Below, piece after piece: positions 2,738 through 33,115 of a stretch of 64,000 bases of DNA. Made by a program: the position numbers and the translations under genes. Numbering within the stretch: position 1 is the stretch's first letter; every line of letters starts with the position of its first letter. Below the pieces are notes generated by a model. The model ran no database searches. It was given only the letters and a program-made list of their open reading frames with translations, and was not told where the DNA came from. Origin of the DNA: an uncultured archaeon (GTDB lineage Archaea > Micrarchaeota > Micrarchaeia > Micrarchaeales > CABMGC01); NCBI GenBank assembly GCA_963830445.1, contig CAWHMC010000013.1, forward strand, positions 17,242-81,241, read 5' to 3'.

Positions 2738-4801
2738 TCACCTGATGAAGAAGCCCGCGTAGCACGAATCCATGAACGCGCTGTTGCCGCTCGCGCGCAT
2801 CACGGTGCCGTAGAGCCCGTATACGCTCATGCTGGAGACGTTGGTAGCTGAAAGCAGCACCACCGGCGTGTTGGTGCGCGCGTACTGATTCATGCACTGG
2901 CTCACATTCTCCGGAATGCCGGAGCCGTAGGTCGTGGGAGTGCAGGCGCTTCCCGTGAAGTAGATCGTGTTGCTGGTGTAGTTGTACTGTCTCGCATAGG
3001 AGTTTATCTCAGAGGCGCAGACCGAGAGCGAGGCGGCCGTGCCATTGACCGCTATGACCACCGTATGGGAGCTGTGCAGAGCGCCCGTGAAGGCGCCCGC
3101 CGGAGCCGAGGCGTTGGCCGCCGAAGCGACAACGTAGGTGACGCCCACGTAGGCGAGCACCAGTATGAACACTATCCCGAAGAACATGTGCCAGGCCCGG
3201 GCGGTCCTGTGGCTCAGGTGCAGCCTCTTGCGCGCCTTCAGGCGCTGGTATTGCACGAACATTATCGCCAGGATCACGAGTCCGATCAGGAACGAGAGGA
3301 GGGCTGCGAGGAGCGGCGCCATCTGCACCGTGGCGGGGTAGGAGAGCCCCAGGGCAGACGACATAAACGCTATGAACGGGCCATCGATGCCGCGCACGAG
3401 CGCCTCCGGACTGAGATCGAGCGTGTTTGAAAGGGAGGGGATCTTGGAGCTTATCTGGGTGAGGTTGGAGAGCGCCTGCGGCAGGTTGGAGATCTGACCA
3501 TTGAGCTGCTGGTTGTACTGCTGCTCGCGGAAGGCGAGGGAGGCCGTCTGGTTGGAGCGGTCGCCGTTGAGCTGCGCCGCTATCAGCGCTGCGGTGTTGC
3601 TGCGGGCCAGTGAGAGGACGGCGGAATAGGAGGCATTCGCCTTTGCGTAGAGCGAGGCGAGCGCTGCGTACTGGGAGGCCAGGCCGGCGGAGTAGCTGGT
3701 CACGTTGAGCGTCAGGTAGTTGCTCCTGAGGTTGGTGAGGTTCTGCTTTGTGCCCGCGAGCTCTGAGCTCATGGTCGCATTGACCAGGTGGGTGAGGAGC
3801 AGCGTGCTCCTGTTCTGCAGCCCTGGCAGCCCCTGAAGCGTAGTGTTGAGGACGACGGAGAGGACGGAGAGCTTCTGCTTGGTGAGAGTAGGCAGAATGT
3901 AGGTCCCTTCGGTATTGCTGATGTTAACGGCCATGGACGCGATGTTCTGCGCCGTGGGCAGCTGCGCGTTGACGGTGTTCATCGCATTCTGTATGGGCGT
4001 GTAGAGGGAGGTGTTGTAGGTGAGGAACTCGCAGTATCCGAGGGCGCTGCAGTACCAGGGCATGACGTAGCCCAGGGAACTGCCTAGTGGGTTGCATGCG
4101 GCGTAGTTCGAGGAGGCCGGAGGCGGGAAGATCGTGCTGTTGCCCATGGCCTGTGTGAGGCTCTCAATCTGGGAGACGGCAAAGAACGCCTTCTGCACGT
4201 TGTTTAGGGCACCCGCGGCGGAGGCGTTGGAGGTGGCTGCGTTGAAGATTGAGACGTTGCTCTGCAGCAGGCCGTACTGCTGCCCGAACTGCATTATGCC
4301 CAGGCCCAGCGGCGAGCCGGCGCCGCCCAGTTCTGAGAGGACCAGGTTGCAGGCCGGGATCTCCGAGCAGGAAGCGCAGTTGTTGGACAGGGTGCAGCTC
4401 GTTCCCTGGACGTTGAGCCCCGTCTCAGTGAGGCAGTCGTTTACTGGTCCGGATGAGCTGTTGAGGTACTGGTTAACTAGCCTGGAGAGGGGCGTAAAGT
4501 TCAAAGAAGCGGCGGTGAAGGAGAGGATGGGGGTTATTATCGACTGTATGGAGCTGGCGTTCAGCACCACCGTGGGCGAAGCGCCCGTGGTGTTGACGAG
4601 GAAGTAGGGCTTGCCCGCGCTGTACACGAGGACGTAGGTGTGGCCCAGGTAGGTGATGTTCGTGAACGTGGCGGTATTTATGATGGAAGCGGAGACGTTG
4701 TAGTTCCTGAGCAGCGTGTTGACTCCCGCATAGGAGGCGGAAGCGCTGAGGGAGGCGAGGAGTAAGGAAGCGAACAGCAACAGGGTGTATTGCATTCTCA
4801 T
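2738..4801 (-). CDS. Large surface glycoprotein with signal peptide, Cys-rich ectodomain, Asn/Leu/Ser-rich coiled-coil-like stalk, TM hairpin and C-terminal 4-Cys domain (possible S-layer anchor)
   Basis: Signal peptide MRMQYTLLLFASLLLASLSASA. Many N-x-S/T sequons. Heptad-like region NLTNLRSNYLTLNVTSYSAGLASQYAALASLYAKANASY. Two hydrophobic segments around LLAALLSFLIGLVILAIMFV and FFGIVFILVLAYVGVTYVV. Confidence 0.6.
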   Translation of the reverse strand: MRMQYTLLLFASLLLASLSASASYAGVNTLLRNYNVSASIINTATFTNITYLGHTYVLVYSAGKPYFLVNTTGASPTVVLNASSIQSIITPILSFTAASLNFTPLSRLVNQYLNSSSGPVNDCLTETGLNVQGTSCTLSNNCASCSEIPACNLVLSELGGAGSPLGLGIMQFGQQYGLLQSNVSIFNAATSNASAAGALNNVQKAFFAVSQIESLTQAMGNSTIFPPPASSNYAACNPLGSSLGYVMPWYCSALGYCEFLTYNTSLYTPIQNAMNTVNAQLPTAQNIASMAVNISNTEGTYILPTLTKQKLSVLSVVLNTTLQGLPGLQNRSTLLLTHLVNATMSSELAGTKQNLTNLRSNYLTLNVTSYSAGLASQYAALASLYAKANASYSAVLSLARSNTAALIAAQLNGDRSNQTASLAFREQQYNQQLNGQISNLPQALSNLTQISSKIPSLSNTLDLSPEALVRGIDGPFIAFMSSALGLSYPATVQMAPLLAALLSFLIGLVILAIMFVQYQRLKARKRLHLSHRTARAWHMFFGIVFILVLAYVGVTYVVASAANASAPAGAFTGALHSSHTVVIAVNGTAASLSVCASEINSYARQYNYTSNTIYFTGSACTPTTYGSGIPENVSQCMNQYARTNTPVVLLSATNVSSMSVYGLYGTVMRASGNSAFMDSCYAGFFIR

Positions 4802-5926: not shown

Positions 5927-8900
5927 TCAAACTGTGGCGTTGGCCAACAGAGCCTGTATGAACTGGTTGCCTGCCGTAACGGTCTGCGCTGCGGAGTATC
6001 CTGCGACGAGCACGCGGTTTGCACCGAATGCCTGAACCACTACGCTGCTCTGACCGAAGGTCGAGTTGAACGATGGGTTCTGCGCGAAGATCTGTCCCGC
6101 GACGCTGTTCACGTACTTGCTGCCCACTACGATCAGCGTTGAGGCGCTGTTCGCGTTGGAGTCAAGCACTGCGAGAGGCGTCGTGGCCGTGTTCAGAGTC
6201 GTAGGCACTACTGCCTGCGTCACTGATGGCACTGCCGTCAGGTTCGCCAATCCGCTCACGTTGCAGCTCGACGTCGTGAATGCGCATGTCGCGTTCACCT
6301 TGCCGATTGTAACGTTCGCGAGGTTTGTCGCCTGGCCTACGCCATACGGTCCTGCCAGCTTCGTGGTCGTTGCGGTGTTGCTTGATACTGATGCCGCGCC
6401 GACGATGAACTGAAGCCCGTCTATGGACTTCGGCTCGTCGTATACCAACGCTGTCGTTGATACTGATGCGACGTCACCACCACGCTCTGTACGGAAGCCC
6501 TGAACAGCCTTTACCTGGTTGTTCTGTGAGCTCTGGTACGTTACCGCGTTGTTGTTGCTGTTCGAGATGTTCAACCAGTACGCAGGTGTCGGGTATCCAA
6601 CAACCGTCGAGGTGTTCGTGATACCAAGTATCACGTTCGCGTTAGGCGATGTGCTGCCCGGTACCGTTATCTCCGGCATCGTGTACGTGAAGAACTGGTT
6701 TCTTGCGGCACTCGAGAACGAAGAGGTCGAGATGGCGAAGTTCACGTTGTTCTGCTCTCCCGTGTAGGTCAGGGTTGACACCGTAGGCGCCACCTTGTAG
6801 CTGTACTGCGGTACGCTGTACAACAGGGTCGGGGTTGACGAGTACGTCAAAGCTCCAAGTTCCACGGAGTTGACCACGAACGCGTTCTGCGCGAAGCTGT
6901 TGCTGCTCGCGAATGCGACCGCGTTAGCTGCGTAGTTCAGCTGTGCCGTGTTGCCCGTTTCGAAGACGTATACTGATACGCCTGGGTTCGGGAGCACTGC
7001 GCTCAACTGGATGTTCGTCAGGTTGCCCAATGCTAGACCGTTTCCAACTAACCAGTTGCCCGCTGCGGACCCTGCGCCCTGGAAGGAGAACGTGTAGGTC
7101 GTAGCAGAGGTCTTGCCCGGCTGGTATCCAGTCAACTGGACGTTCAACGGGTTGCTCGCGGTTATGATGTTCGCGTTCAGGCCCGAGCCTCCAATCAACT
7201 CTACTGCCAGACCACCGTTAGGTGAGGCAAGTATGTTTGCCGCAGATGCCGCGTCTATCACGTTAGGCGTGAGGGACTTGTCCAGCTGGTAGGGGTCGAG
7301 GTTGTAGGTCAGGCTCTGCAGGTTCGATGACGGTGCCGCTAGGCTTCCGGTCGAGGTGACCTGGAATGCGGTCGGGATCGAGCTCTGCACCACGAACTGG
7401 TTAACCGGCTCGGTTACCACTGTCGTGTTGAGCTGCTGCACTGTTCCTGCTGCGCCTCCGAAGCCGCTTACCACAGCCGACGTGCCTCCTGAGGTTGTAG
7501 CGAAGCTGATGTGGTTGGCAGTGAACGGTTCACCGGCCGCTGCACCCAGGTTCGAGTACGTCGTCGCAGAGGAGTAACCCGTCGAGAACGACAGCGCGTC
7601 GTAGTTCGAGTTGCCGCTGCTTGGCGCTCCCAGTGAGTCACCGGCGAAGTTGACGCTCCACCTGGCCGGGCTTGTTATGAACTGGTAGCTCGTGCCTGGC
7701 GTCATTATCGTCTGGGTGCTCTGGTTGGAGTACAGCACTATGCCCTGAAGCGCTGCGTTCGCGGAGGTCGCGGCCGCAGTTGAGGACTGGTTTGTCGTCC
7801 ATCGCAGGCCAACGAGCCAGTTGTTTCCGTTTGCGGAGTTGAAGTTCTTTCCGCTCGTCACGTTGACGGTGTTGGAGAACAGCTGGATCTTTGCCCACTT
7901 CTGGTATGCGTACAAACCTGGGAAGGTCTGTGAAACCTTCACGTACAGCTTCGTGCCAGAGGAGTTGACCACTATGTTCTGGTTAGAGGCGGGACCAGCG
8001 GACGTTACGTTTGTCAATACACCGTTGTTGTATATTGAAAGCGCTGCGTTGCTGATTCCGTTCTGGTTCGGGTATGACAGGTCGTTCAGGACCACTGTGA
8101 ATGGACCTGAAGTTATGTTGTGCCCTACGTATACGGTCTGCACAGGAGTTGAGGCCTGGGCGAGAGTCACGTTACCACCAACGACGAACGAGTTTGACGT
8201 TACACCGGTTATGGAGGTCGGGACGGTCATGCCATATACTGACCAGTTAGCGCCCAGCAACGTGAACTGCGCGTTCGTTGCCGTGCCGCCTGAGGTCACC
8301 TGTATCGGCTTGCCGAAGGTAACAAGGTATGCACCGTTCGTGTCGAGCAGTGAGAGCACGCCCGTTGCCTGGTTGAAGACTGGGAAGCCTGCCAACCATA
8401 GGGATGCCGTCTCCTGGTACGTACCGGAGTTCGATTGCAATCCCGGAACCTGTGCGCTCGTCAGCTGGAGGACGTTATCATATCCGAGAGGAGATGAGGT
8501 GAACCTCGAGAACGAGATGCCGCCACCGTTTGTGCCAGCGCTGACTGTTGGCTGCGGGCTTGGAGTTCCGATGCCAGCAAATACGCTCGTTGCGGTTGGG
8601 CTGCTTGTTATCGCATATGGACCTGTTGTTGGGTCTACGTAGTCATAGTTCGTTCCAGATGCACCCTGCAGCGACTTCGTGTTGACGAGGTTGCCTGAGC
8701 TCAGTACGCCTGGGTTAAGAACCGAGCCTATCAATGCCGTAAAGGAATAAGATCCCGTTGGCACGACAAGTCCCTGCTCTCCTAGCCATACTTGCTGGTT
8801 AGATAGAGTGCACGTTGGGGTCGTTACGACGCACTTCACGTTGCTCCTGCCGCTTACTGTGGCAGTCACGTTCGTGGAGGTGTGAGAGAGGCTCCCAATC

Positions 8901-11390: not shown

Positions 11391-12167
11391 ATGGAAACTA
11401 TTACTCTCAGAGGAGACAGTGAAGAATTCGATGCTGGCGAGATTTTGAGGAACCGTATCAGGACAGGGATAACCGGCATGGACAACATGCTGGAAGGCGG
11501 CATACCCGAAGGCAACCAGATTATCCTCGCCGGAGGGCCGGGTTCCGGAAAGACGCTCATGTCCTTCGAGTTCCTGTACAAGGGGGCGCGGGAGGGCCAG
11601 GTGGGTGTGCTCTTCTCCTTCGAAGAGGAGGCGGTGCGCATAATACAGAACGCCAAGGACGCCTTCTCTGAGTTCACGGACATAGACGATCTGATAAAGG
11701 AGAAGAAACTCGTGGTCTTCGGATCAGAGGAGACGAAACCGTTCATACAGACGGGCAACGAGCAGGTCGCATACACGTTCAGCCGGATGATCTCAGAGCT
11801 CCAGAACCGCATAGAGGCGGCTGGGGCGAAGCGCGTCGTCATCGACTCGATCTCATTCGTAAAGCTTTTCATAAGCGACCTGTTTGAATACCGTGCGCTC
11901 TCGCTCAGCCTTCTGACCGTACTCAACCGGCAGGGCGTTACCACGATAATCACAATGGAGGTGCAGAGCCAGGAGAAGAATAATGTAAATTTTGAACAGG
12001 AGTTCTTCATCTATGACGGACTGGTCATGCTCTACTTCTCCGGCTCGGACATGCAGAACAGGATGCCAACCATGGAGATAATGAAGATGCGCGGCACGCA
12101 CCACTCCTACAACGGCATACCCTACGAGATCACCAGCCGGGGCATCAACATACTCTCGATGGTCTAG
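11391..12167 (+). CDS. Single-domain KaiC/RecA-like ATPase
   Basis: Walker A GGPGSGKT, Walker B VVIDSIS, and ITGMDNMLEGGIPEG typical of archaeal KaiC-like proteins. Confidence 0.85.
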   Translation: METITLRGDSEEFDAGEILRNRIRTGITGMDNMLEGGIPEGNQIILAGGPGSGKTLMSFEFLYKGAREGQVGVLFSFEEEAVRIIQNAKDAFSEFTDIDDLIKEKKLVVFGSEETKPFIQTGNEQVAYTFSRMISELQNRIEAAGAKRVVIDSISFVKLFISDLFEYRALSLSLLTVLNRQGVTTIITMEVQSQEKNNVNFEQEFFIYDGLVMLYFSGSDMQNRMPTMEIMKMRGTHHSYNGIPYEITSRGINILSMV

Positions 12168-12178
12168 CGGCTGATTTT

Positions 12179-12583
12179 ATGCCCTCGGTATTCGAGAATT
12201 TTGAACAGCTCCTAAAGGAGGAGAAGTACGGCGAGATAATACTCTACTCCTGGGCCTACGTCGAGTACGTGGTCAACCTCCTCTTCCTGGAGGAGTTCGG
12301 CCTGTCCACAAAGAGCAAGGACAAGAAGGCGGAGTTCCTGATGGAGAAGCTGGAGTTCGAGGAGAAGTGGAAGTATCTTAAGAACGCCGGCCTTTTCACG
12401 GACAAGGAGAAGGAGCAGATCACCAGGTTCCAGAACCAGAGGAACGAGCTCTTCCACGTTACGCTCTTCAGCTCGCCCAAGTTCCACGACCCGAAGGAGA
12501 GAAAGGAGCTCACGGAGCTGGCCAAGAACGCATTCTACATAGTGGTCAACGCCTACGTCAGGAAGCACAAGCTGACTCTCTGA
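12179..12583 (+). CDS. Small helical protein with HEPN-like R-x4-H motif
   Basis: 134 aa, helical-looking, with RFQNQRNELFHV (RN-x3-H as in DUF86/HEPN). It starts 11 nt downstream of the KaiC-like gene. Confidence 0.4.
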   Translation: MPSVFENFEQLLKEEKYGEIILYSWAYVEYVVNLLFLEEFGLSTKSKDKKAEFLMEKLEFEEKWKYLKNAGLFTDKEKEQITRFQNQRNELFHVTLFSSPKFHDPKERKELTELAKNAFYIVVNAYVRKHKLTL

Positions 12584-12586
12584 GAG

Positions 12587-13276
12587 TTAGATGTTGTTCA
12601 GCCGCATCCGTATCTCCTCGGCATTTAGCTTCGTCGTGAGGAGCGGGATGCGCTCCAGCTGGGAGATCTTTATGGCCAGCTTGTCCACCGTGTCCAGGTT
12701 CTGTATGACTACGAGCTTCGGCTTTATCGGGGCAACGCGCACGACCACCATGGGGGAGCGGCCGGTGCTCACCTGGTCGAAGATGAAGGCGCGTTCGCTG
12801 GTAGTGCCGAAGAGCTTCGGGTACTCGGCGGGCTGTATCTCCAGTATTATGCGCAGGCTGTCGAGCAGGGTGTAGCCGAAGAGCTTCATCGAGTCGAGCT
12901 GCCCGGGATTCGTAACTATTTTAGCGTCGATCAGGCGCGCCAAATCTGTCCCGGTTATCGGAGCCGTGAAATCGTGTATGTAGTAGAAGGAGCCCTGCTC
13001 GTCCTTCTTGTTGAATTTGTCGAGGTTGCGGACCACCTCGCCGCCGCGCTGCGCATCGATGGTGAAGAGCGCCTGTATGAAACGCTTTATCACGCCTACT
13101 CCGGGACTCGCTCGCCTATTGCCCTCATAGTCGCTTATGGTGGAAGTGGAGATCTTAAGGTACTTGGCCAGCTCTACCTGTGAGATTCCGAACAGCTCGC
13201 GCCATTTCTTCATGGTGCTGCCCGGTGTCTCCGAGAATGCGATCTCTCCTGCAATCCGTTCCTGCAAACTGTCCAT
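12587..13276 (-). CDS. XRE-type HTH transcriptional regulator with C-terminal domain (archaeal COG1395-like architecture)
   Basis: MKKWRELFGISQVELAKYLKISTSTISDYEGNRR is an HTH_XRE motif, followed by a domain of about 150 aa. It is divergent from the 13434 operon. Confidence 0.7.
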   Translation of the reverse strand: MDSLQERIAGEIAFSETPGSTMKKWRELFGISQVELAKYLKISTSTISDYEGNRRASPGVGVIKRFIQALFTIDAQRGGEVVRNLDKFNKKDEQGSFYYIHDFTAPITGTDLARLIDAKIVTNPGQLDSMKLFGYTLLDSLRIILEIQPAEYPKLFGTTSERAFIFDQVSTGRSPMVVVRVAPIKPKLVVIQNLDTVDKLAIKISQLERIPLLTTKLNAEEIRMRLNNI

Positions 13277-13399: not shown

Positions 13400-13408
13400 T
13401 ATAAATAA
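13400..13408 (+). promoter_or_regulatory. TATA box of the VirB-like operon
   Basis: TATAAATAA ends 26 nt upstream of ATG 13434. A second AT-rich box, CTTAAATAA, is at 13382-13390. Confidence 0.4.
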
Positions 13409-13433: not shown

Positions 13434-13814
13434 ATGGATAAACTAGGTAAATTTGGTTCGGTAGGCAGTACAATCCTGAAGATACCCCTTATCATATTGG
13501 GGGTGGGGGTCGCTTTCCTGAGGGAGGCCGGAGCGACAGGGACGTTCGCGTTCGATATCGTATCTACGCTCAATAACATCCAGGGCATACTGGTGCACAT
13601 CGGGCCCGTGCTGAGTGCGGTGCTGTTCGTTACCGCAGGGGTGTTCTACGCAGTCGGGCAGCTCTTCCCGAGCCAGAAGCGCGCGAGCCTGCACAGCGCA
13701 GCCATAGACATCATAATAGGCGCCATAATAGTGGCCGTGCTTTCGGTGGCCTCCGCAAGCCTGGCGCTCGCATCAACGAACTTGCTGTCGAACGTCACGG
13801 CAAACGTTCTCTGA
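13434..13814 (+). CDS. VirB2/TrbC/CedA1-like pilin candidate
   Basis: Signal-like N-terminus ILKIPLIILGVGVAFLREAGA. Then two hydrophobic helices (GPVLSAVLFVTAGVFYAVGQLF and AAIDIIIGAIIVAVLSVASASLALA) joined by the basic loop PSQKRASLH. Confidence 0.5.
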   Translation: MDKLGKFGSVGSTILKIPLIILGVGVAFLREAGATGTFAFDIVSTLNNIQGILVHIGPVLSAVLFVTAGVFYAVGQLFPSQKRASLHSAAIDIIIGAIIVAVLSVASASLALASTNLLSNVTANVL

Positions 13815-13827
13815 GCGGGGGAATCTC

Positions 13828-14874
13828 GTGCCATTGAGCCCCTACGGTTTCAGCATAGCAGTCTACGTGATAAGCATAATGATAGCGATAGGCGGGATCG
13901 CTCTTGGGCTGGGATACGCGCTCAATGAGAAGCGGATGAAGGAGTTCGGCCGGCGGGAGCTCTACGAGTGCGCAATCAATGGAGCCATAGTTGGGGGTCT
14001 CTTCCTTCTCTTCGTATCCGGAGGACCGGTGAGCGCGGCGATAAACCAGCTGACGCTCTCCAGCAACACCACGCTGAACTGCGGTCCCTACATGGCTGAC
14101 AACGCCGCGATGTGCCTTTCCTACGATTACCTGGTGAGCCCGCAGCCCTACACGTTCACTGGCGTGGTTCACACCTCCGTGCTCTCTCAGGTCGGGAGCA
14201 CCATAACCGGGCTTATGATACTCAATGGGATACTGGGAGGGATAGCAGGGGGGAGCGTGGACCTGATAGTGGTCCAGTTCTCCGCCTCCTATGCCATAAC
14301 CCCGATAATAAGCGAGATAACGTACATCGTGAAGATCCTCAGCACGGTTGCGATAAGCGTGACGGTCCAGGCTGCAGTTCTCGAGTTCGCAGCGGCTGGA
14401 GTGCTCACCGTCCTGTTGCCGGCGGGTGTGATCCTGCGTACATTCTACCCTACGCGGAAGCTTGGCGGCTTCCTGATGGCGGTTTCCATAGGCCTGTATG
14501 TTGTGCTGCCCCTCTCCTACGTCTTCAACGCCACGTTGGTAAATACCTACTCCTCTGTCTCATCTGGCCAGAGCATAACCCAGGTCTCGCTGAACGCCAC
14601 AGGAGCGGAGACCCAGCTCTTCCATGAGGGCACAGCGCAGAGCACCAACTCAACGTCACAAAACAGCGCGGTAGGCGGTGTGCTGAGCCTTATCTCGAAC
14701 CTCATCAACACAGTTTCGGGTCTCATAAACTGGATCCTCGGCGAGCTTGCGTACTTTATAGTTTACGCGTTCGTCCTCCCGCTCTTCAGCTTGATTGTGA
14801 CGGGGATCTCAATACGCGAGATTGCAGAGCTTTTGGGCTCGGAGGCGCGCTTCGGCAACTTCAAAATGTTGTGA
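13828..14874 (+). CDS. Polytopic membrane protein, VirB6/TrbL/CedA-like candidate
   Basis: GTG start preceded by a GGGGG. About 7-8 hydrophobic segments by eye and two Ser/Thr/Asn-rich loops with sequons. It is second in the operon. Confidence 0.45.
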   Translation: MPLSPYGFSIAVYVISIMIAIGGIALGLGYALNEKRMKEFGRRELYECAINGAIVGGLFLLFVSGGPVSAAINQLTLSSNTTLNCGPYMADNAAMCLSYDYLVSPQPYTFTGVVHTSVLSQVGSTITGLMILNGILGGIAGGSVDLIVVQFSASYAITPIISEITYIVKILSTVAISVTVQAAVLEFAAAGVLTVLLPAGVILRTFYPTRKLGGFLMAVSIGLYVVLPLSYVFNATLVNTYSSVSSGQSITQVSLNATGAETQLFHEGTAQSTNSTSQNSAVGGVLSLISNLINTVSGLINWILGELAYFIVYAFVLPLFSLIVTGISIREIAELLGSEARFGNFKML

Positions 14875-14878
14875 TCTG

Positions 14879-15607
14879 ATGGACGAGAACGAGCTACTTG
14901 ATAGGCTGTATTCCTACGCCTTCTGCGCCGCGGCGTTGGTGGTAGCGGCGTTCTCTTTGCTCTCTGGCAGTTATCTCCTCGCGCTTATCTGCGCTGCGCT
15001 CCTCCTCTGCGCCGGCGCATTCTTCAGTTCGGGGCACATAATAAACAACCTACTGCTAAAGCATTCGAACATCATCGCCTACTATAACGAATACAAGCTC
15101 AGCAGCACGCTGCTCTCTCTTACGCGCCCGGAGGGCAATATGCACAGGAGCCTCTCCGTTGCGGTGCTGCGCTCCGAGCGTGCTTCTGAAAGCTCTCCCG
15201 AGGCGCTGCGCAATCTCATAGAGGGGATGATGGAACCGTTCGAGTTCTCGATACGCATGGTGCCTGCGGACAAGAAACGAATTGTCGATGTGCTTGACGC
15301 GAAGCGTCGCATGAAGGAGTTACAAATCGCCAAGATGAAGCCCGGAAAGCCAGATGCGGTGAACTCGCTTAGGCGCGAGATACAGGTCATAGAATCGGAC
15401 ATGGAGAACATACGGAAGGGAGGGATGGCATTCGATACCGTGATAAGGATAACTGCGGTGGCGGTGGCCGAGAGCCAGATGGAAGCGGCACGCCAGTCGG
15501 TGCGGAGCCTTGAGCGGCTCTGCGATGCGTTTTCTGCGACGACAAAGTTGGAGTGCGAGATCCTCAAGGGTGAGGCACTGGTGAAGTTCATGAGGTGGAA
15601 TTCGTGA
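14879..15607 (+). CDS. Membrane-anchored protein (two TM, VirB3-like) plus soluble domain, possibly the N-terminal part of a split VirB4
   Basis: ATG 14879 lies 4 nt after the previous stop. TM helices AFCAAALVVAAFSLLSGSYLLALICAALLLCAGAFF precede a soluble domain of about 170 aa. It overlaps the ATPase gene. Confidence 0.45.
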   Translation: MDENELLDRLYSYAFCAAALVVAAFSLLSGSYLLALICAALLLCAGAFFSSGHIINNLLLKHSNIIAYYNEYKLSSTLLSLTRPEGNMHRSLSVAVLRSERASESSPEALRNLIEGMMEPFEFSIRMVPADKKRIVDVLDAKRRMKELQIAKMKPGKPDAVNSLRREIQVIESDMENIRKGGMAFDTVIRITAVAVAESQMEAARQSVRSLERLCDAFSATTKLECEILKGEALVKFMRWNS

Positions 15608-16722
15608 AGATCGTGCAGACTCTAAGCGCAACGCGCCTTTCCAACCTGATCGCTGTGCCGCGCCTATCGGAGCAATCCCACGCACAGGTAGAACGTGCAT
15701 CTGACGGGGGCATATTTATAGGATGCACCGAACGGTCGCGGATGCCTTTCTTCATGAACCCAGAGCTGGCGATAAATCCCCACCTCTTCATTGTCGGGAT
15801 GAGTGGCGGCGGAAAGACCTACCTGGCCAAGAACCTTATGATAAAACTCTACGCCGTGCTGTCGTGCCAGGTTGTTTTGATAGATTTTACGGGCGAGTAC
15901 GAGGAGTTTGCCTCCTTCGTTGGCTGTACCTACTGCCGCGACCTTAACCTGCAGCACATATTGGGCATGGAACGGCAAGAACTGGTGTACCTAAATCTGG
16001 GAAACATGAAGGAGCAGGAGAAGATTGCAAACGGACGCAGGGTAATAGCTGAGCTAACCAGCATAATGCGAATGCGCGGCCTGAACAACAGCACGCGTCT
16101 GTTCATCGTTCTGGATGAGGCGTGGAAGCTGCTGCGCTCCGATCCGGGTCTGGAGACCATCCTACGCGAAGGCCGCAAGTATCGAACGGGCCTGGTGCTC
16201 GCATCGCAGCTTATCGAGGACATGGAACGGGAGCTCTGTTCCAACGTCGCGACCTTCTTCGCATTCAGGGTGCAGGACGCGGGAAGCCTGGCACGGCTGA
16301 AACAGAACTACGAACTTGACGATGCCCAGATACTACGCATACAGAATTTGGATGTGGGAAGCTGCTGTGTGGTACAGACCTACAAGAGCGGCAGACGCGG
16401 CGTCTTCACGATCTCGCGGGTGGCTGGGCTCTCGGTGAAGGAGATGTTTGCATTGACTACAGGTGAAGCGATGGTGGAGATTGAGTTTGAGCGCGTTGAG
16501 CGGATGGTGCGCGCCCTGGCGCGGAAGGAGCCCGGCGCGGTGGTGGCGAAGATACACGCGGAGCGAGGAATCGATCTCAGCGTGTTGGTGGAAGAGCTCC
16601 TACGCCTTGGAGCCGATCGGGTGCGGGTGCTAGCGGCGCTGAGGGAGCTGGGGCTCGACGACACGACCCTGGCGGATGCGTTCGCGTACGCTGTGGCAAA
16701 GGTGAAGAAAGATGAGGAGTAG
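15595..16722 (+). CDS. VirB4/TrbE/CedB-like P-loop ATPase (C-terminal ATPase module)
   Basis: Walker A FIVGMSGGGKTYLAKN, Walker B LFIVLDEAWKLL and REGRKYRTGLVLASQLIEDM. Alternative GTG at 15604 gives a GTGA overlap with the upstream stop. Confidence 0.75.
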   Translation: MEFVKIVQTLSATRLSNLIAVPRLSEQSHAQVERASDGGIFIGCTERSRMPFFMNPELAINPHLFIVGMSGGGKTYLAKNLMIKLYAVLSCQVVLIDFTGEYEEFASFVGCTYCRDLNLQHILGMERQELVYLNLGNMKEQEKIANGRRVIAELTSIMRMRGLNNSTRLFIVLDEAWKLLRSDPGLETILREGRKYRTGLVLASQLIEDMERELCSNVATFFAFRVQDAGSLARLKQNYELDDAQILRIQNLDVGSCCVVQTYKSGRRGVFTISRVAGLSVKEMFALTTGEAMVEIEFERVERMVRALARKEPGAVVAKIHAERGIDLSVLVEELLRLGADRVRVLAALRELGLDDTTLADAFAYAVAKVKKDEE

Positions 16723-17395
16723 GCCAGAAGAGACAAAAGGATATCTGCTCTCCAGCATCCCCTTCAAGGCGAGGCTTGTGAATAGGCGCAGGCTCCTGGA
16801 ACTGTTGAAGGCATACCCGGGGCTTGAGCCCGTACGCTACGGCAGCTCGCTGCACTACTTGATACGAGAAGAGGGAGACGGCTCGCATTTTTACATGGTC
16901 GATTTCGGAATTACGCAGGTTACACTGCAGATCTTTGCGAGGACCGCGCCACTGGAGCTTCTCCATGAAGGGATGCTGCGGCTGTTGAACCTCGCCTCCT
17001 TCGTGGGCGAGGCCTACGACTTCGAGATAGCCAGCATCTTCCCCTATCTCATTCAGGTCCTGGCCCGGCAGCACATTGAGCATCTGCCGGAACGTCCGGA
17101 GCGGAACGGAAAGGAATGGGCCGGCGCAGAGATAATACTGGCGAAAAGGATCATAGAGCTGAGGAACGACAGCACCTTGCTAAAACAGCAGATGGAGTAT
17201 CAATCGGACCGCTTGGTGCGAATGCTTGCGCTGCTGCTCCCACTCCGATATCCGGGAAGGTGCAGCATGAACCAAGCGGCGAAGGAGATGGGCGCGGCAA
17301 AGGCGGAGATACGGGCCGCGGTGAGCATCTCTCAGGGAGCAGGTTACAGGGTAGTATGGCACAACGAGGAGACGTTTAGCATGGTGTGGGAATGA
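16712..17395 (+). CDS. Soluble operon protein of unknown function
   Basis: 227 aa with no TM. The ATG overlaps the ATPase stop by 11 nt. The C-terminal MNQAAKEMGAAKAEIRAAVSISQGAGYRVVW could be a small wHTH. Confidence 0.5.
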   Translation: MRSRPEETKGYLLSSIPFKARLVNRRRLLELLKAYPGLEPVRYGSSLHYLIREEGDGSHFYMVDFGITQVTLQIFARTAPLELLHEGMLRLLNLASFVGEAYDFEIASIFPYLIQVLARQHIEHLPERPERNGKEWAGAEIILAKRIIELRNDSTLLKQQMEYQSDRLVRMLALLLPLRYPGRCSMNQAAKEMGAAKAEIRAAVSISQGAGYRVVWHNEETFSMVWE

Positions 17396-17835
17396 ACGAT
17401 GCATTCTCTTATTATCTGTGGGAGACTGTGCCGATTCTCGTCGGAATCGGATTGATGCTCCTGCTGCGGGCTTTGAAAAGGAGCAGCGGCAAGGTGAGCA
17501 TAACGAGTTCGCTGCCACAAACGCTTGATCCGATATCTCTCGCTGGAGAGGGATACATGATGCGCACAGAGGAGATAATCAAACAGTTCGCCCGCGACCA
17601 GCGCATAGTCTCTGGGGAAGACCCAGTGGACTTGGATGCGAAAGACGCGTTCAAGAGCTTTGGAATATTCGACATTCATTATACCGAGGCGCTTCTGCAC
17701 CATAAAATTGATAGGGATAGTATCAGGTTGCTCCGTAGGCAATCGCCTAGGGTGAAGGACTTGATGCTGCAGTTCGGTTCTGGGGGAGCGGCGTTAATGA
17801 GCTATGCGCTCTCCTACAAAATTGAATGGATCTGA
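17392..17835 (+). CDS. Single-pass membrane protein of unknown function
   Basis: ATGA overlap with the upstream stop (GTG 17386 also possible). TM segment WETVPILVGIGLMLLLRAL. Confidence 0.5.
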   Translation: MNDAFSYYLWETVPILVGIGLMLLLRALKRSSGKVSITSSLPQTLDPISLAGEGYMMRTEEIIKQFARDQRIVSGEDPVDLDAKDAFKSFGIFDIHYTEALLHHKIDRDSIRLLRRQSPRVKDLMLQFGSGGAALMSYALSYKIEWI

Positions 17836-18035
17836 GTGATAATATGCTACTTGTGGATGAGTTTTTTGGGATGGTACTAAGGATTAGCGCGATGGCTGCA
17901 AGCACGACTATATTGTGTCTCGCATTTTATCTCGCACTGTCGAAAACCAACAGGTTTAGGGAGTTCATAGCTGCACGGCTGGTGGCATTCCTGGTCGTCC
18001 TGGTTGTGGCTTTCCTGTTAATGAGGTCGGTGTGA
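17826..18035 (+). CDS. Small two-TM membrane protein (CedA1/A2-sized)
   Basis: 69 aa with two hydrophobic helices. 10-nt overlap with the upstream gene. Confidence 0.45.
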   Translation: MDLSDNMLLVDEFFGMVLRISAMAASTTILCLAFYLALSKTNRFREFIAARLVAFLVVLVVAFLLMRSV

Positions 18036-18316
18036 TGGAGTTTAGAGAGTTTTACAGTATCAACAAGCAGTACCCCGTGAAGCGTGTGCAGCTTCTGCTC
18101 ATAGTCATTACTAACCTGTGCACCATCCTCTCCGTAGTAGTAGGGAACGTGATAGTGGCGATGGAATTGTCGGTTATCGTAGCCCTATTCGTATCCACTG
18201 TGCCGCTGCGGAAGGCGCGCCTGGGGCTTGCAAGCGTAAACACGTTAAGCCTGCTTCTCTTGGTCAGCGTCTTTGTTCTTTTTACGGCACTGGCTTCGCG
18301 TGTAGTAGTATTATGA
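18032..18316 (+). CDS. Small three-TM membrane protein
   Basis: 94 aa with a GTGA overlap with the upstream stop. Three hydrophobic segments. It is the last gene of the operon. Confidence 0.45.
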   Translation: MMEFREFYSINKQYPVKRVQLLLIVITNLCTILSVVVGNVIVAMELSVIVALFVSTVPLRKARLGLASVNTLSLLLLVSVFVLFTALASRVVVL

Positions 18317-18344
18317 CCGCTTGCGTAAGATATTTATATCTGAA

Positions 18345-18370
18345 CATTTAACCATTTAAATGGTTAAATG
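18345..18370. promoter_or_regulatory. Perfect 26-nt palindrome (candidate VapB operator) downstream of a TATA box
   Basis: CATTTAACCATTTAAATGGTTAAATG equals its own reverse complement. TATTTATAT at 18331-18339 precedes it, and the vapB GTG is at 18379. Confidence 0.5.
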
Positions 18371-18378
18371 GCGATAGT

Positions 18379-18630
18379 GTGGTAAAAACGACAATTAATC
18401 TCGATTCGGAAGTATATGCGGCGCTGGTGAGCGAAGCTGTCAAGAAATACGGCACCACTAAGACGCTATCAAAACTTATCAATGAGAAGTTGCGTTCAAA
18501 ACATTCCAGTAATAGTAAGCGCGCTTTTGAGGAGGCCTTCGGCTGCTGGCCTATGAAGGAAACAGGTAGCGAGTATACAAGACGGCTTAGGAAGGATTTT
18601 GAAAAACGTTCTAGGAGGCTGGGGCTGTGA
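18379..18630 (+). CDS. vapB: VapB-type antitoxin
   Basis: MVKTTINLDSEVYAALVSEA is an antitoxin-like N-terminus. 4-nt overlap with the PIN gene. Confidence 0.6.
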   Translation: MVKTTINLDSEVYAALVSEAVKKYGTTKTLSKLINEKLRSKHSSNSKRAFEEAFGCWPMKETGSEYTRRLRKDFEKRSRRLGL

Positions 18631-19010
18631 GTTATTTTGTAGTAGATACCAGCGTATTGATAGATTATTTGCGCGGTTTCGGGGAGTCCCAGGGGATTAT
18701 GGAGAGGGTAAAGAACGGGGAGATTCAGGCAGGTATATCAACACTCACCCAGACGGAGCTCTTTTCAGGCAAGGGTTCAGAAGTTGAGCAGACAAGGAGG
18801 AAGATAGAAAATGTGCTTGAGTTCTTTGTGAAGATTAACGTTGATGAACAGGTTGCAATAAAAGCAGGAGAATTTAGGAGGAGATACGACGTCGGGATAC
18901 CGGATGCGATAATAGCCGCGACCGCGTTCATATCAAACGCAAAACTGCTCACCTGCGATAGGTCAGATTTTGGCAAGATCAAAGAGATAGAAGCGGAGAA
19001 ACCCTACTGA
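18627..19010 (+). CDS. vapC: PIN-domain toxin VapC
   Basis: FVVDTSVLIDYL, TELFSG, IPDAIIAATA and LTCDRSDF match the conserved PIN acidic residues. Confidence 0.85.
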   Translation: MSYFVVDTSVLIDYLRGFGESQGIMERVKNGEIQAGISTLTQTELFSGKGSEVEQTRRKIENVLEFFVKINVDEQVAIKAGEFRRRYDVGIPDAIIAATAFISNAKLLTCDRSDFGKIKEIEAEKPY

Positions 19011-19014
19011 TCCT

Positions 19015-20244
19015 TCAGAGGACGGCAAGTCTCTTCTGGTAGATCATCCTCTTGAGCAATTTCCCGTTCCTCATCCACACCGGAATCGGGATCTCCAGTT
19101 TTGTCGAGGCATAAGCCAAAGCGCTGTTGATGTCCGAGAATATCTTGGGCTCTGTCCGCAGCGCCTCGCGAACGTGCTCACGCACATTCCAGACGCCCAC
19201 AGGCATTATGTATCCAGGATGCACCTCGCGCAGTATCAGGACCTTTGCCTGGGCCTTGTGGCGCTCCAGAAGTTCGCCTACTGCCAGGCGGGCGGCGTAG
19301 TAGCAGCCCCCGATCTCGGCGTAGCTCCTGCGGCCGTCGAATGACTCGTAGGAGGCGCCCATGTCTATCTCTGTGCTGTTCATGTTCCAGGTGGTGTTGG
19401 GGTACCAGGCCTCCATCGACTCGTACTCCCAGGAGCCCGGCACCATTATTATCTCCCAGCGGTTGTCCAGGGCGATGAGCTCGTACACGCGCACAGCATC
19501 AAGGGGCGGGTACTGCTTTATCTGCTTGAGCAGCTCCTTGCCCAGCGTGTCGTCGGTGGCGGTGATGCTCCAGCGGGTGGGCACGAAGACCCGGCGGGAC
19601 TTTCGGCCAAGCACCCCGGCGGAGAGCGCCTTCTGGATCTTGGAGACCTCGACCCCTTTCTGGTAGAGCTCCAGCATCGCGCTTGCCGCGCCCATGCTCT
19701 CGTCCAGGTACGCAGCCTCCAGGCGCCGGTCAGCCTTGCTGTTCTCCAATGTCATGGTTTCCATGGGCGCACTGGGCCCGAAGGGCTGGCTGTTCTCGCT
19801 AAATATGACCCCCTGGGTGGGCATGCGGGTGAGCTTCACGTCCATGGTGCTGTACTTCTCCGCTATCGCTATCTCCTTCACCATCTCCTCAATCCTGCCG
19901 CTGTCCACGTTCTTGACCCGGGTGCGGTGCATCCCGCGGATGAGGAGCGAGCGCATCTCGACGATCTCGGGGATGCTCTTCCCCACCCAGCGCTCCGGCG
20001 TGCCCATGATTGAGGTGTCGCCGAGCTGCGGCGGGACGAGAGGCCCGATGTAGACGTTGGGGTAGCCGATGCGGCCCACGAAGATGTCCGGAGGCGAGCT
20101 GCCATAGATCTCGTTGTTCTTTATCTGCTCCAGGGTCTTGAAGCGGAAGTAGTTCTTGAGGAAGTAGGGATTGCGCATGTTCCTGTATACGGAGCCGTCT
20201 ACGCGCACGGTGGTGGGCTGCATGCAATCAATAGTGTAGGGCAT
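19015..20244 (-). CDS. nreA: Nre-family DNA repair protein (DUF650/DUF651)
   Basis: IYGSSPPDIFVGRIGYPNVYIGPLVPP and PTRWSITATDD are as I recall for the archaeal NreA family. Length 409 aa fits. Confidence 0.65.
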   Translation of the reverse strand: MPYTIDCMQPTTVRVDGSVYRNMRNPYFLKNYFRFKTLEQIKNNEIYGSSPPDIFVGRIGYPNVYIGPLVPPQLGDTSIMGTPERWVGKSIPEIVEMRSLLIRGMHRTRVKNVDSGRIEEMVKEIAIAEKYSTMDVKLTRMPTQGVIFSENSQPFGPSAPMETMTLENSKADRRLEAAYLDESMGAASAMLELYQKGVEVSKIQKALSAGVLGRKSRRVFVPTRWSITATDDTLGKELLKQIKQYPPLDAVRVYELIALDNRWEIIMVPGSWEYESMEAWYPNTTWNMNSTEIDMGASYESFDGRRSYAEIGGCYYAARLAVGELLERHKAQAKVLILREVHPGYIMPVGVWNVREHVREALRTEPKIFSDINSALAYASTKLEIPIPVWMRNGKLLKRMIYQKRLAVL

Positions 20245-26830: not shown

Positions 26831-27237
26831 CGGAACGGGTCGAATTTTTGCTCCACTAGGCTCTTCACCATGGGCGACAGAGGGAAGGGCAGATTATTCC
26901 AGTCCACCCACTTCCAGGACTCGTGTTTGTCCGGCTCCTTGAGCTGGACGGTCCCGGAGGCGTAATCAGCCACGCAGACCACTATCAGGACATGGTGGCT
27001 CCGCTCCTTGAATATCTCGGAGACCAGCGTGCCGAGCCTTATGTTTTTTATCTTTATCCCGACCTCTTCCCGGGTTTCCCTCAGAACACAGTCGTTGACC
27101 TCCTCACCGAACTCCATTTTTCCGCCGGGACTGCCCCACCCTAGTGGAAACTTCTTTCGGCTGCCAAGAAGGATCTTTCCATCTTTCCTTATCAGCACTG
27201 CGACTGCTATTCGCGGGACGCCCTCCACTGGAATCAC
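26827..27237 (-). CDS. NUDIX hydrolase
   Basis: Nudix box GGKMEFGEEVNDCVLRETREEVGI. GTG start in a GTGA overlap with the upstream platform gene stop. Confidence 0.9.
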   Translation of the reverse strand: MIPVEGVPRIAVAVLIRKDGKILLGSRKKFPLGWGSPGGKMEFGEEVNDCVLRETREEVGIKIKNIRLGTLVSEIFKERSHHVLIVVCVADYASGTVQLKEPDKHESWKWVDWNNLPFPLSPMVKSLVEQKFDPFR

Positions 27238-28238
27238 ACGCCGGTCGCGACGCTGCCGAGGACCGCGCCGAACAGAGCAGATACGACGAAGAAGATCACC
27301 AGGCCGATGATTATGAACAGCGGGATGTACTTTATGCCCTTTATCACCGATCCTGACGAGATGGCCGATACGATGAGCGCACTCATGCCCGCTATTATGA
27401 TTATGGCCAGCAGCGAGAAGGTGTTGTACTCGCTCGGCTGCACCGTAGGGGCGTGGGGCGAGAGGAAGGAGAGCGAGGAGGACTGGGTAAGGGCGCCTAA
27501 CCCTCCTGAACCGGATTGGAGGATGTGGCCCCAGATCGTGTCGGTTATGGAGATCATCCTGTTGGTCAGGCCGAAGAGCACCGGGGCCGCGACCACGGCG
27601 GCGAAGGTGATGAATATGGTGTACATGAACAGCTGGCCGGAGATCTCCTTCTGTATGGTCTGCTGGTTGCGCAGGTCGCGGGCGATCTGGTTGAGTATAT
27701 CGGCCATGCCGCCCCCGTAGCGCAGCGCCTCGGACATCATGCGCGTGGTGCGCTTGAGCTGCAGCGAGCGGTAGCGGTTGGACAGGTTGAGCAGCGCGTT
27801 GGACATGGTCTCGCCGGAGAAGAGCCGCTTGCCCATCAGCAGGATGTCCTGTCGGAAGTAGGAGAACTCGGGCCTTGCCGAACTTATCAGCGCCTTGTCC
27901 AGCGCCACGCCGCTCCTGATATTCGCTGCGGTGAGCTGCAGGTAGTCGGGCAGCACCCCCTCAACGAAGGTCTTGCGCTTGTCTATGAGGTACTCGAGAA
28001 TCGCGTAGAGAGAGATCTCGAACATGATTGCGGCGGCGAAGCCGATGCCCGCGGAAAAGAGGGGGTTGAAGCTGAATAGCAGGACGGGTATGAAAGCGCA
28101 TAATATGAACAGCGCCAGTCCCCCGACAACCGCGATGCGTATGAAGCTGTTGACGCTGCTCTTAATGCCCGAAAGGTCCATCTCGTCGGAGACGAATCTC
28201 ACCACATTCCTGGATACAAGCGTTTCGAAGTTTACCAT
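27234..28238 (-). CDS. Type IV pilus platform protein, single T2SSF domain (TadC/EpdK-like)
   Basis: TM pair, then cytoplasmic helical domain LPDYLQLTAANIRSGVALDKAL...MSNALLNLSNRY...ALRYGGGMADILNQIARDL, then C-terminal TMs. Confidence 0.75.
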   Translation of the reverse strand: MVNFETLVSRNVVRFVSDEMDLSGIKSSVNSFIRIAVVGGLALFILCAFIPVLLFSFNPLFSAGIGFAAAIMFEISLYAILEYLIDKRKTFVEGVLPDYLQLTAANIRSGVALDKALISSARPEFSYFRQDILLMGKRLFSGETMSNALLNLSNRYRSLQLKRTTRMMSEALRYGGGMADILNQIARDLRNQQTIQKEISGQLFMYTIFITFAAVVAAPVLFGLTNRMISITDTIWGHILQSGSGGLGALTQSSSLSFLSPHAPTVQPSEYNTFSLLAIIIIAGMSALIVSAISSGSVIKGIKYIPLFIIIGLVIFFVVSALFGAVLGSVATGV

Positions 28239-28245
28239 CTAATCA

Positions 28246-29430: not shown

Positions 29431-29530
29431 GCAGCTGCAATGAACAGGTTAGGCCAATAATTAATACATGGACATCTTTTTAAAGGATTGGGTGGCAGCG
29501 AGGGATTAATGCTGCACGTGCAAGTCCATT

Positions 29531-30184: not shown

Positions 30185-30190
30185 CGCCGA

Positions 30191-31699: not shown

Positions 31700-31704
31700 A
31701 CAAC

Positions 31705-33009: not shown

Positions 33010-33115
33010 CCGCTCACGTGCACTTCTTAAGTAGTAAAAGCACAAATAAATAGGTTTGTGTAAGTTTTTGACGATTCAGAGGTAAAATTCGTTTTGTATT
33101 CAAACAGTACCTGGC

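Follow-up and report, generated by a model that had tools for sequence, protein, structure and literature searches.

A conserved Micrarchaeota operon resembling a relaxase-less type IV secretion system, with a putatively split VirB4-like motor

A number of reports describe conjugation machinery that has been put to other uses by cells. The Ced and Ted systems of archaea are domesticated type IV secretion systems (T4SS) that import DNA (PMC9905601). In the case of Ted, the signal peptide of the TedC pilin is thought to be removed by signal peptidase I (PMC9905601), and in the case of Ced, the CedB and CedD proteins are built of a membrane domain, a VirB4-like N-terminal domain and a HerA-clade ATPase domain, both having formerly been classified in the HerA clade (PMC11868833). 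In Patescibacteria, T4SS clusters are chromosomal and mostly without a relaxase, with genes for VirB2-like pilins often near them (PMC12102498); the same source reports, from transposon sequencing (Tn-seq) of Ca. Southlakia epibionticum (Saccharimonadia), that the T4SS cluster is essential for epibiotic growth and that the competence system is not. In this study, we have analyzed a stretch of 64,000 nucleotides (nt), hereafter the window, from contig CAWHMC010000013.1 (assembly GCA_963830445.1) of an archaeon belonging to the Micrarchaeota, a DPANN phylum of cells attached to other archaea, whose cultivated members are obligate episymbionts (bioRxiv 10.1101/2024.05.20.594898). Positions 13434-18316 of the window hold an operon of eight genes, here called g1 to g8, which opens with the gene of a VirB2/TrbC-type prepilin and encodes, as its fourth product, a P-loop ATPase. 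We regard it as probable, although well short of certain, that this operon is a chromosomally fixed, relaxase-less T4SS derivative specific to Micrarchaeota, which links cells and moves a macromolecule, most likely DNA, between them.

The first gene, g1 (13434..13814, + strand), encodes a protein of 126 amino acids (aa) which belongs, at the level of its family, to the VirB2/TrbC pilins. The Pfam model TrbC/VirB2 matches 27 of the 59 family members (best E-value 4e-6) and T4SS_pilin matches 22 (best 3e-7), labels that the precomputed annotation of some members already carried. An unbiased search, in which the profile was run against 1.84 billion cluster representatives, yielded 79 proteins, and among 61 scanned relatives outside the core family T4SS_pilin was matched by 29 and TrbC by 20, the remote relatives having in common the motif AG..YA.GQ....E.RA. 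The protein is laid out as a signal-like helix (residues 6-30), a first helix (38-77), the basic loop PSQKR and a second helix (80-125), with an N-x-T sequon at the C-terminus whose Asn120 is invariant. The AlphaFold2 (AF2) model, built from 51 sequences, likewise places a leader helix before a helix / basic loop / helix hairpin, with a predicted local distance difference test (pLDDT) score above 90 over most of the mature part. The initial annotation, made from the letters alone, had read g1 as a VirB2-type pilin with a helical hairpin; the family-level Pfam matches and the remote relatives bear out the assignment and the model gives the hairpin, whereas a search of PDB sequences with the g1 profile returned no match. 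In the alignment, the hydrophobic leader is variable and ends in small residues, suggesting that it may be cleaved by signal peptidase I, and the mature part is highly conserved (GP.LSAVLFI.AGIFYA.GQLFP..KRA..H...IDIIIGAIIVAVLSVAS). No other gene of the operon is so well conserved (45-75% identity by tblastn, 40-70% when aligned at full length), in keeping with the constraints that packing into a filament puts on a subunit, and g1 would be expected to form a pilus.

The product of g4 (15604..16722, +), of 372 aa, is a P-loop ATPase of the FtsK/HerA/VirB4 superfamily, with the motifs GMSGGGKT (Walker A), VLDEAW (Walker B) and REGRKY and a conserved helical stretch of about 85 aa that prolongs the C-terminus. 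Its Pfam matches above the cut-offs are AAA_10, the top family, to which ATPases of the VirB4/TraC type belong (1.7e-15; 57 bits against 27.5), DUF87 (2e-9) and P-loop_TraG (2e-9), and TrwB was matched as well. Among the NCBIfam models, CedB matches all 38 members of the g4 family with the lowest E-value of any family (4e-24), followed by CedD, HerA_antiphage and TraC, all far below their cut-offs. The g4 of the window reaches 52.5 bits against the CedB model NF041017, whose cut-off of 700 no member approaches, and 28 bits against the curated VirB4_CagE model, whose cut-off is 643; overall, the HerA and VirB4 families give g4 roughly equal scores. The ATPase had been annotated from its motifs as of the VirB4/CedB type, and this is upheld by AAA_10 above its cut-off and by CedB as the best curated model. 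Only some 50 residues precede the Walker A motif of g4, and a HAS-barrel N-terminal domain is lacking. As residue 33 of g4 aligns to position 248 of the CedB model, the CedB model extends about 215 positions further at its N-terminal side, which is near the length of g3.

The g3 protein (14879..15607, +), of 242 aa, consists of a membrane-helix hairpin and a cytoplasmic alpha/beta domain that includes a long helical hairpin, and its predicted fold resembles the N-terminal domain of VirB4. When the AF2 model was compared with the PDB by Foldseek, the best 12 matches by E-value were all R388 entries, the chains that were identified being TrwK/VirB4; the first of them (E=1.6e-3, probability 1.00) extends over 167 columns, the length of the soluble domain. 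Many HerA structures exist in the PDB, and HerA entries were absent from the 50 matches listed. Sequence searches with g3 gave coiled-coil noise (e.g., Get1) and no family match. Since the g3 model matches R388 VirB4, g3 and g4 together look like a split ATPase of the VirB4/CedB type, in which g3 would supply a VirB3-like anchor and the VirB4 N-domain, and g4 the VirB4 C-domain. The two products may form a physical complex; their genes share an ATGA overlap of 4 nt, in which the stop codon of g3 overlaps the start of g4.

The operon is shared by the phylum. About 90 relatives of the ATPase were found in a collection of 5.8 billion proteins, and all those with an organism name are from Micrarchaeota. 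A survey of loci, with one genome per GTDB species, returned 79, of which 73 (L002-L074) belong to the family; they all lie in Micrarchaeota-type genomes or metagenome-assembled genomes (MAGs), a few of them labelled Marsarchaeota or 'uncultured archaeon', and include the complete genome of the cultivated ARM-1 (AP024486), which carries g1-g4, and the complete MAG chromosome OY969902. By tblastn and profile hidden Markov models, the succession g1-g2-g3-g4-g5 on one strand recurs in about 70 species-level genomes and in every locus long enough, with 74 Micrarchaeota loci agreeing in order and strand; the five genes are complete in 64 loci, the others being cut by contig ends or having one gene undetected, and each product varies little in length. 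On the downstream side, synteny extends to nreA in 25 loci and to the gene of an M24 peptidase in 20. The shared gene order and these housekeeping neighbors indicate a trait of the phylum that is inherited vertically, and no mobile element. Conservation of gene order in related genomes was one of the checks that the initial annotation had proposed; the phylum-wide vertical inheritance in obligate episymbionts is a context that it did not have. Its suggestion, drawn from two FtsZ genes, that the host lies outside the Cdv-type lineages agrees with our results, as Pfam confirms both FtsZ genes and every close relative is from Micrarchaeota (DPANN); moreover, FtsZ of the window shares a cluster at 90% identity with the FtsZ of one of the surveyed MAGs.

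In 41 of 67 informative loci, g8 is followed by a ninth gene, which encodes a P-loop ATPase of about 735 aa (e.g., L003:12758-14992 and L002:6569-8773) with the motifs GLPGTGKS, EEAQL and FRKKG. It has no Pfam family and bears a faint similarity to HerA, VirB4 and mad8; in function it could correspond to a coupling protein or to CedD. The gene is absent in 26 loci with enough downstream sequence and likewise in the window, where its position (18316-19015) is taken by vapB/vapC (18379-19010). This pair, which lies between the operon and nreA, encodes an 83-aa VapB-like antitoxin and a 127-aa PIN-domain toxin, and a perfect 20-nt palindrome, TTAACCATTTAAATGGTTAA, stands just upstream of it (about 18348-18367). 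Two MAGs carry the operon twice on different contigs: MAS3.bin106 (L006 and L007), whose copies have clearly diverged, with ATPases 44% and 40% identical to that of the window, and MAS1.bin30 (L062 and L064), with two whole-operon copies; these are either real paralogues or mixed bins.

Beyond the family, a sister operon at L081:8001-11253 (GCA_964441305.1) encodes a 141-aa pilin, a 359-aa g2-like protein, a 266-aa g3-like protein and an ATPase which, like P0089-P0092, has a helical insertion of about 120 aa between Walker A and Walker B and keeps the C-terminal extension of the g4 type. In other archaeal MAGs, ATPases of this type adjoin ParA-like genes and genes for large membrane proteins. 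More distant ATPase relatives (L075, L076 and L080) occur in MAGs labelled Hydrothermarchaeota, Methanobacteriota and Aenigmatarchaeota; those of L075 and L076 adjoin ParA/MinD-like genes and genes for very large membrane or secreted proteins, and L075 also has a weak g2-like gene (E=5e-9). The ParA-like neighbors of these distant relatives hint that the ATPase may have arisen in conjugative elements of archaea.

The eight + strand open reading frames (ORFs) form a single tight operon in the ORF listing, and the same genes appear in a public record of a 6.6-kb contig with identical DNA and independent annotation, whose gene call gives products of 126, 346, 242, 372, 227, 147, 69 and 93 aa for g1 to g8. 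Gaps of 13 nt (g1/g2) and 4 nt (g2/g3) are followed, after the g3/g4 junction described above, by overlaps of 11 nt (g4/g5), 4 nt (g5/g6), 10 nt (g6/g7) and 1-4 nt (g7/g8, set by the start chosen), and overlaps of the ATGA type are found at three or four junctions. The guanine-plus-cytosine (GC) content of the operon, 0.55-0.565, equals that of the window. A TATA box, TATAAATA, can be read directly at 13400..13407 (+) and probably acts as the promoter; as it ends 26 nt 5' of the g1 ATG (13434), the transcript would be leaderless or have a very short leader. The initial annotation was right on the eight ORFs and their coordinates, on this TATA box at 13400 and on the motifs PSQKRASLH, GMSGGGKT, FIVLDEAWKLL and REGRKYRTGLVLASQ, all present in the translations. 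Three of its gene starts, on the other hand, call for revision: g4 is likelier to start at ATG 15604 (372 aa) than at GTG 15595, an exact-protein look-up from the latter having given no match while the recorded gene begins at 15604, and the likelier starts of g6 and g8 are 17392 and 18035.

Next to the pilin gene, g2 (13828..14874, +) encodes a polytopic membrane protein of 346 or 348 aa with about seven helices (59 aligned sequences and hydropathy). The positive-inside rule puts two of its loops outside the cell: the first carries sequons and a pair of invariant cysteines, and the second is variable, with an abundance of Ser, Thr and Asn. The strongly conserved motifs RxFYPTRKLGGF and GISIRE..LGSE are cytoplasmic. 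From its topology and its position beside the pilin gene, g2 may be the channel or assembly platform, in the role of VirB6, CedA or TedA. Its profile has no similarity to that of the g1 pilin, and thus we found nothing like the relation between the CedA N-terminus and CedA1 that has been reported for Ced. The VirB6/CedA assignment in the initial annotation therefore stands on position and topology, with no match in Pfam, PDB sequences or the pilin profile.

The soluble g5 protein (16712..17395, +; 227 aa), found at the same operon position in about 65 loci, begins with an alpha/beta domain, continues in a coiled-coil helix and ends in a helix-turn-helix (HTH)-like domain (alignment of 54 sequences). 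Its profile matches the N-terminal HTH of DeoR (7bhy, E=7e-4) and also BirA and MarR HTH domains, so the domain is probably a winged helix, and g5 may serve as an adaptor for DNA or for a substrate, or else as a regulator. The last three products are small, and their counterparts were recognized by position and size: g6 (17392..17835, +; 147 aa) has one N-terminal membrane helix, g7 (17826..18035, +; 69 aa) has two, and g8 (18035..18316, +; 93 aa), the last operon gene here, has two or three. Counterparts of g6 occur in 56 of 64 loci (120-215 aa, usually one membrane helix, with the 4-nt overlap with g5), but sequence similarity is detectable in only eight loci beyond the window's own contig; those of g7 occur in 34 loci (54-72 aa, mostly two membrane helices) and those of g8 in 27 (76-100 aa, one to three). 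Their sequences thus diverge fast while position, size and helix count are kept. By hhalign they are unrelated to the pilin, to g2 and to each other, and they may be accessory membrane subunits. Of the partner proteins once described as having no recognizable family, g3 and g5 have left that class, through the VirB4-like model and the HTH-like end, and g6-g8 remain in it.

Mobility genes are absent among the scanned genes of the window: Pfam found no integrase, relaxase, TraG/VirD4 or ParA family, in agreement with the initial annotation. The scan covered the called genes of the 64 kb, but neither the block of ribosomal-protein genes (about 40.1-45.4 kb), nor three genes at 52.7-54.4 kb whose products resemble ribosomal proteins, nor uncalled ORFs and intergenic gaps. 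What it recognized is housekeeping, e.g., Hjc resolvase, PIN proteins, glycosyl- and nucleotidyltransferases, a KaiC-like ATPase, NreA, DNA ligase, the two FtsZ, primase and S-adenosylmethionine synthetase. The tRNA genes of the window lie only at 21410 and 50338, no flanking direct repeats of note surround the operon, and relatives of the operon were found neither in phage genomes nor in IMG/VR, with only weak, partial matches in plasmids. The scanned context, which could have disclosed an integrase, relaxase, type IV coupling protein (T4CP) or att repeats, shows none of them, and its GC is uniform.

These elements can be assembled into a model of how the machine might work. The operon would be transcribed as a single message from the TATA box at 13400. 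The g1 prepilin would enter the membrane, where signal peptidase I would cut it back to a two-helix hairpin with a basic loop, as in VirB2 and TedC, and g2 would form a seven-helix membrane platform or channel. Under g2, the membrane hairpin and VirB4-type N-domain of g3 and the ATPase domain of g4 would rebuild a VirB4/CedB-like motor, spending ATP on building a conjugative-type pilus out of pilin drawn from the membrane, on pushing a substrate through the channel, or on the two together. The g5 protein, with its HTH-like domain, would serve as cytoplasmic adaptor or regulator and g6-g8 as small membrane accessories. The assembled machine would connect the symbiont to a neighbor, either its host or a sibling, and move a macromolecule across. 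Cargo and direction of transfer are argued here from analogy: with Ced, Ted and conjugation in mind, DNA is the most likely cargo, and the episymbiont lifestyle and the precedent of Patescibacteria make host-directed exchange equally worth considering.

A more specific version of this model, possible but put forward only tentatively, takes the operon as what the symbiont contributes to a physical bridge joining Micrarchaeota to their hosts. A pilus or docking channel of T4SS descent would there import host nucleic acids or other macromolecules, as the archaeal counterpart of the T4SS that is essential for epibiosis in Patescibacteria. In the ARM-1 co-culture, cryo-tomography has revealed nanotubes (outer diameter 6.7 nm) that run between host and symbiont and, in the symbiont envelope, a 21-nm barrel of unidentified nature (bioRxiv 10.1101/2024.05.20.594898). 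The bridge reading would also make the operon a candidate for that envelope structure or for the nanotube, although tying it to either is at present speculation.

Several observations weigh against the proposed T4SS derivative. In the sole Micrarchaeota co-culture imaged, the authors ascribed the nanotubes between the cells to the host and not to the symbiont (bioRxiv 10.1101/2024.05.20.594898). The hints that relate the operon to DNA are no more than the weak HTH match of g5 and the family history of the ATPase. The window's own g1 stays below the 26.6-bit cut-off of T4SS_pilin (E=3e-4, 21.3 bits), and its model, compared with the PDB by Foldseek, finds generic helical hairpins only (ATP synthase c-subunits, chemoreceptors), which is uninformative and no surprise for a protein of two helices whose model includes the signal peptide. 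In the case of g2, none of the 59 members has a Pfam match, nor is there a PDB sequence match even though TrwI/VirB6 is present there. The g3 model has a pLDDT of 79 and derives from an alignment of only nine sequences; its likeness to VirB4 is modest (TM-score 0.33-0.37, query-normalized, with a root-mean-square deviation of 7-8 A), and the Foldseek output comes without the VirB4 residue range that is aligned to g3. Searches of g6-g8 in Pfam, NCBIfam, PHROGs and PADLOC gave no family. Finally, as the ninth ATPase is absent here, the local system could be incomplete or rely on a gene elsewhere.

The ATPase itself leaves room for another explanation. Its profile, run against PDB sequences, comes nearer to HerA than to VirB4 (7e-22 for anti-phage HerA, 8wiv, against 2e-7), and PADLOC models of HerA, which score g4 similarly to CedB, and of mad8 also match it, as would befit a HerA-type module for anti-virus defence or DNA-end processing that is associated with membrane proteins by chance. 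We give this very little credence. In the PADLOC scan the operon has no defence partner (Sir2, DUF4297 or a NurA-like nuclease) and its other seven proteins have no match save one weak coiled-coil hit; the domain that g3 supplies in place of a HAS-barrel matches VirB4, not HerA, and a VirB2-type pilin gene comes first in the operon. We rejected the reading as a defence system after the same scan. High scores of the ATPase core against HerA are to be expected inside one superfamily, and since CedB and CedD had themselves been assigned to the HerA clade, clustering with HerA is no clean refutation of the VirB4/CedB type. T4SS genes are mostly found on mobile elements, and the operon might be part, or the decayed remnant, of an integrated conjugative element or plasmid, as would be suggested by the VapBC pair beside it and by the surroundings of the ATPases of L075 and L076, where ParA/MinD-like genes and large membrane proteins are found, as is typical for conjugative elements of archaea. 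It is hardly credible, however, that such an element should show an identical gene order in some 70 species-level genomes, with nreA and M24 peptidase neighbors in 20-25 of them, a GC content that is not anomalous, no flanking repeat, no integrase, relaxase, T4CP or ParA among its scanned surroundings, and no relatives in phages or IMG/VR and but weak, partial ones in plasmids. Synteny, along with the plasmid, phage, IMG/VR and PHROGs searches, led us to reject mobile-element and virus readings.

Other explanations accept the T4SS ancestry and differ on what the machine does. It could be a T4SS-derived apparatus with a cargo other than DNA, delivering effector proteins to the host or taking up host RNA, nucleotides, lipids or proteins that these symbionts, with their poor metabolism, are unable to make. 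Such a function would suit a phylum of which the cultivated members are obligate episymbionts, and it has parallels both in the Patescibacteria T4SS, reported to be essential for epibiosis where the competence system is not (PMC12102498), and in giant proteins of nanohaloarchaea with VirB4/TraG-like domains, for which effector secretion has been proposed (PMC10266531); in addition, the scanned genes of the window include neither a relaxase nor a second ATPase to act as a DNA coupling protein. Nevertheless, no effector or cargo gene is conserved beside the operon, g5 has its HTH-like domain, and the characterized archaeal relatives, Ced and Ted, move DNA, so that we consider a non-DNA cargo unlikely, though deserving attention. 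Clearly improbable, to our mind, is a VirB2-type pilus that serves solely for attachment to, or recognition of, the host and transports nothing. In bacterial systems VirB4 alone is the pilus-assembly motor, and the short form of the operon in the window has a single ATPase; the pilin, too, is the most conserved part, and its invariant C-terminal sequon would be exposed at the surface. Against this, an archaeal type IV pilus locus for adhesion exists separately at 27.2-31.7 kb, and the HTH-like g5 and the ninth ATPase of 41 relatives are hard to fit to a pure adhesin.

That separate locus (27234-33325, - strand) comprises two T2SSF genes (27234-29106) and a T2SSE ATPase gene (30191-31693), and by Pfam none of the eight operon products belongs to the PilB/FlaI-type ATPase, TadC/FlaJ-type platform or type IV prepilin families. 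It also encodes coiled-coil proteins of 217 and 403 aa and a 69-aa protein, which has an HTH-like motif in common with the N-terminus of the 403-aa one. Two further proteins of the - strand, of 685 aa (2738-4795), with a signal-like N-terminal leader, and 935 aa (5927-8734), are very rich in N-x-S/T sequons and without a Pfam family, and are possible surface-layer proteins or adhesins of the symbiont surface. Upstream of the operon, a 258-aa single-domain KaiC/RadA-like ATPase gene and that of a 134-aa protein without family (11391-12583) are followed by the gene of a divergent HTH_3 regulator (12587-13276); in other genomes the operon has no conserved association with any of these three. The FtsZ paralogues lie in tandem (35343-37423), the second starting at the last base of the first's stop codon (36407). 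The class I lysyl-tRNA synthetase appears to be split into two overlapping ORFs in different frames (50424-51359 and 51226-51984), just after tRNA-Lys (50338-50412), which could reflect a frameshift, an assembly error or a programmed event.

The importance of the proposed T4SS derivative lies in the biology of its carriers. DPANN archaea account for much of the diversity of archaea; their genomes are tiny, and every one in cultivation lives in obligate attachment. The question is how they draw what they need from their hosts, and which molecules form the cell-cell connections. A conserved, single-copy T4SS-like operon of eight or nine genes is a concrete and testable candidate for the DPANN-host connection, all the more so as one carrier, ARM-1, has been cultivated and cryo-tomography and proteomics data for it already exist. 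If our proposal is true, it would be the third independent archaeal domestication of conjugation machinery, after Ced and Ted, and the parallel with the chromosomal T4SS of Patescibacteria suggests a convergent use of this machine for epibiotic life. The apparent split of VirB4 into a membrane-anchored N-domain protein and an ATPase would offer a natural dissection of the motor, and the relatives add a second ATPase of about 735 aa that has escaped any family assignment.

With regard to described systems, we found no publication on a Micrarchaeota or DPANN system of this kind in the literature that was searched, although most papers in subscription journals lay outside the search and a prior mention is possible. 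Ted (Thermoproteales; TedC pilin, TedA channel, TedB ATPase) is likewise a chromosomal, relaxase-less, minimal archaeal T4SS derivative and, compared by layout only, has in common with our operon a VirB2-like pilin with a signal peptide, a polytopic-protein gene beside the pilin gene and a VirB4-type ATPase. It differs in that the Micrarchaeota operon belongs to another phylum (DPANN), appears to divide the ATPase between g3 and g4, has other accessories (the HTH-like g5, three small membrane proteins and, in 41 relatives, the second ATPase) and has no VirC1/ParA, Rad50 or HerA genes near it. In the case of Ced (Sulfolobales; CedA, CedA1, CedA2, CedB, CedD and CedE; PMC11868833), CedB gives the best E-value for g4, the layout of CedB and CedD (membrane helices, VirB4-like N-domain, HerA-clade ATPase) equals that of g3 plus g4, and small two-helix membrane proteins accompany a polytopic one. 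Still, g4 remains at about 52 bits against the CedB cut-off of 700, the Ced genes are scattered, with CedB apart from CedA, where ours form one tight operon, and the CedA1 pilin is reported to be apparently secreted unprocessed, whereas g1 has a signal-like leader; Ced, furthermore, works with the Ups pili induced by ultraviolet light. An NCBIfam scan of g1, g2, g7 and g8 gave nothing relevant. Since g4 falls short of the CedB cut-off, the Micrarchaeota system is no member of Ced.

Outside the archaea, the T4SS of Patescibacteria, or the candidate phyla radiation (PMC12102498), resembles the present system in its carriers, ultra-small obligate epibionts with reduced genomes, in being chromosomal, phylum-wide and mostly relaxase-less, and in VirB2-like pilins that are caught by the same Pfam models (PF04956 and PF18895). 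It is, however, of the bacterial monoderm type of mating-pair formation system (MPF-FATA), with PrgI/PrgH/PrgL-like parts and a full-length VirB4, and it often has 2-11 divergent pilin genes in an array instead of one highly conserved pilin; we obtained no evidence of shared descent between the two beyond the T4SS superfamily. The bacterial conjugative VirB/Trw system of plasmid R388 (TrwL/VirB2, TrwM/VirB3, TrwK/VirB4 and TrwI/VirB6) has the same pilin superfamily, a gene order that runs from pilin to VirB3/4, and in TrwK/VirB4 the match to the soluble domain of the g3 model, and the membrane hairpin of g3 before a VirB4-like N-domain mirrors VirB3, which is sometimes fused to VirB4; yet the Micrarchaeota operon has no VirB7/9/10 outer-membrane core, VirB8, VirB11, VirD4 or relaxase, and its VirB4 appears split into N- and C-terminal parts. 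The Micrarchaeota operon is thus best filed as a variant of the domesticated archaeal T4SS, and what sets it apart is the apparently split VirB4, an accessory set of its own, an optional second ATPase and its restriction to a DPANN phylum.

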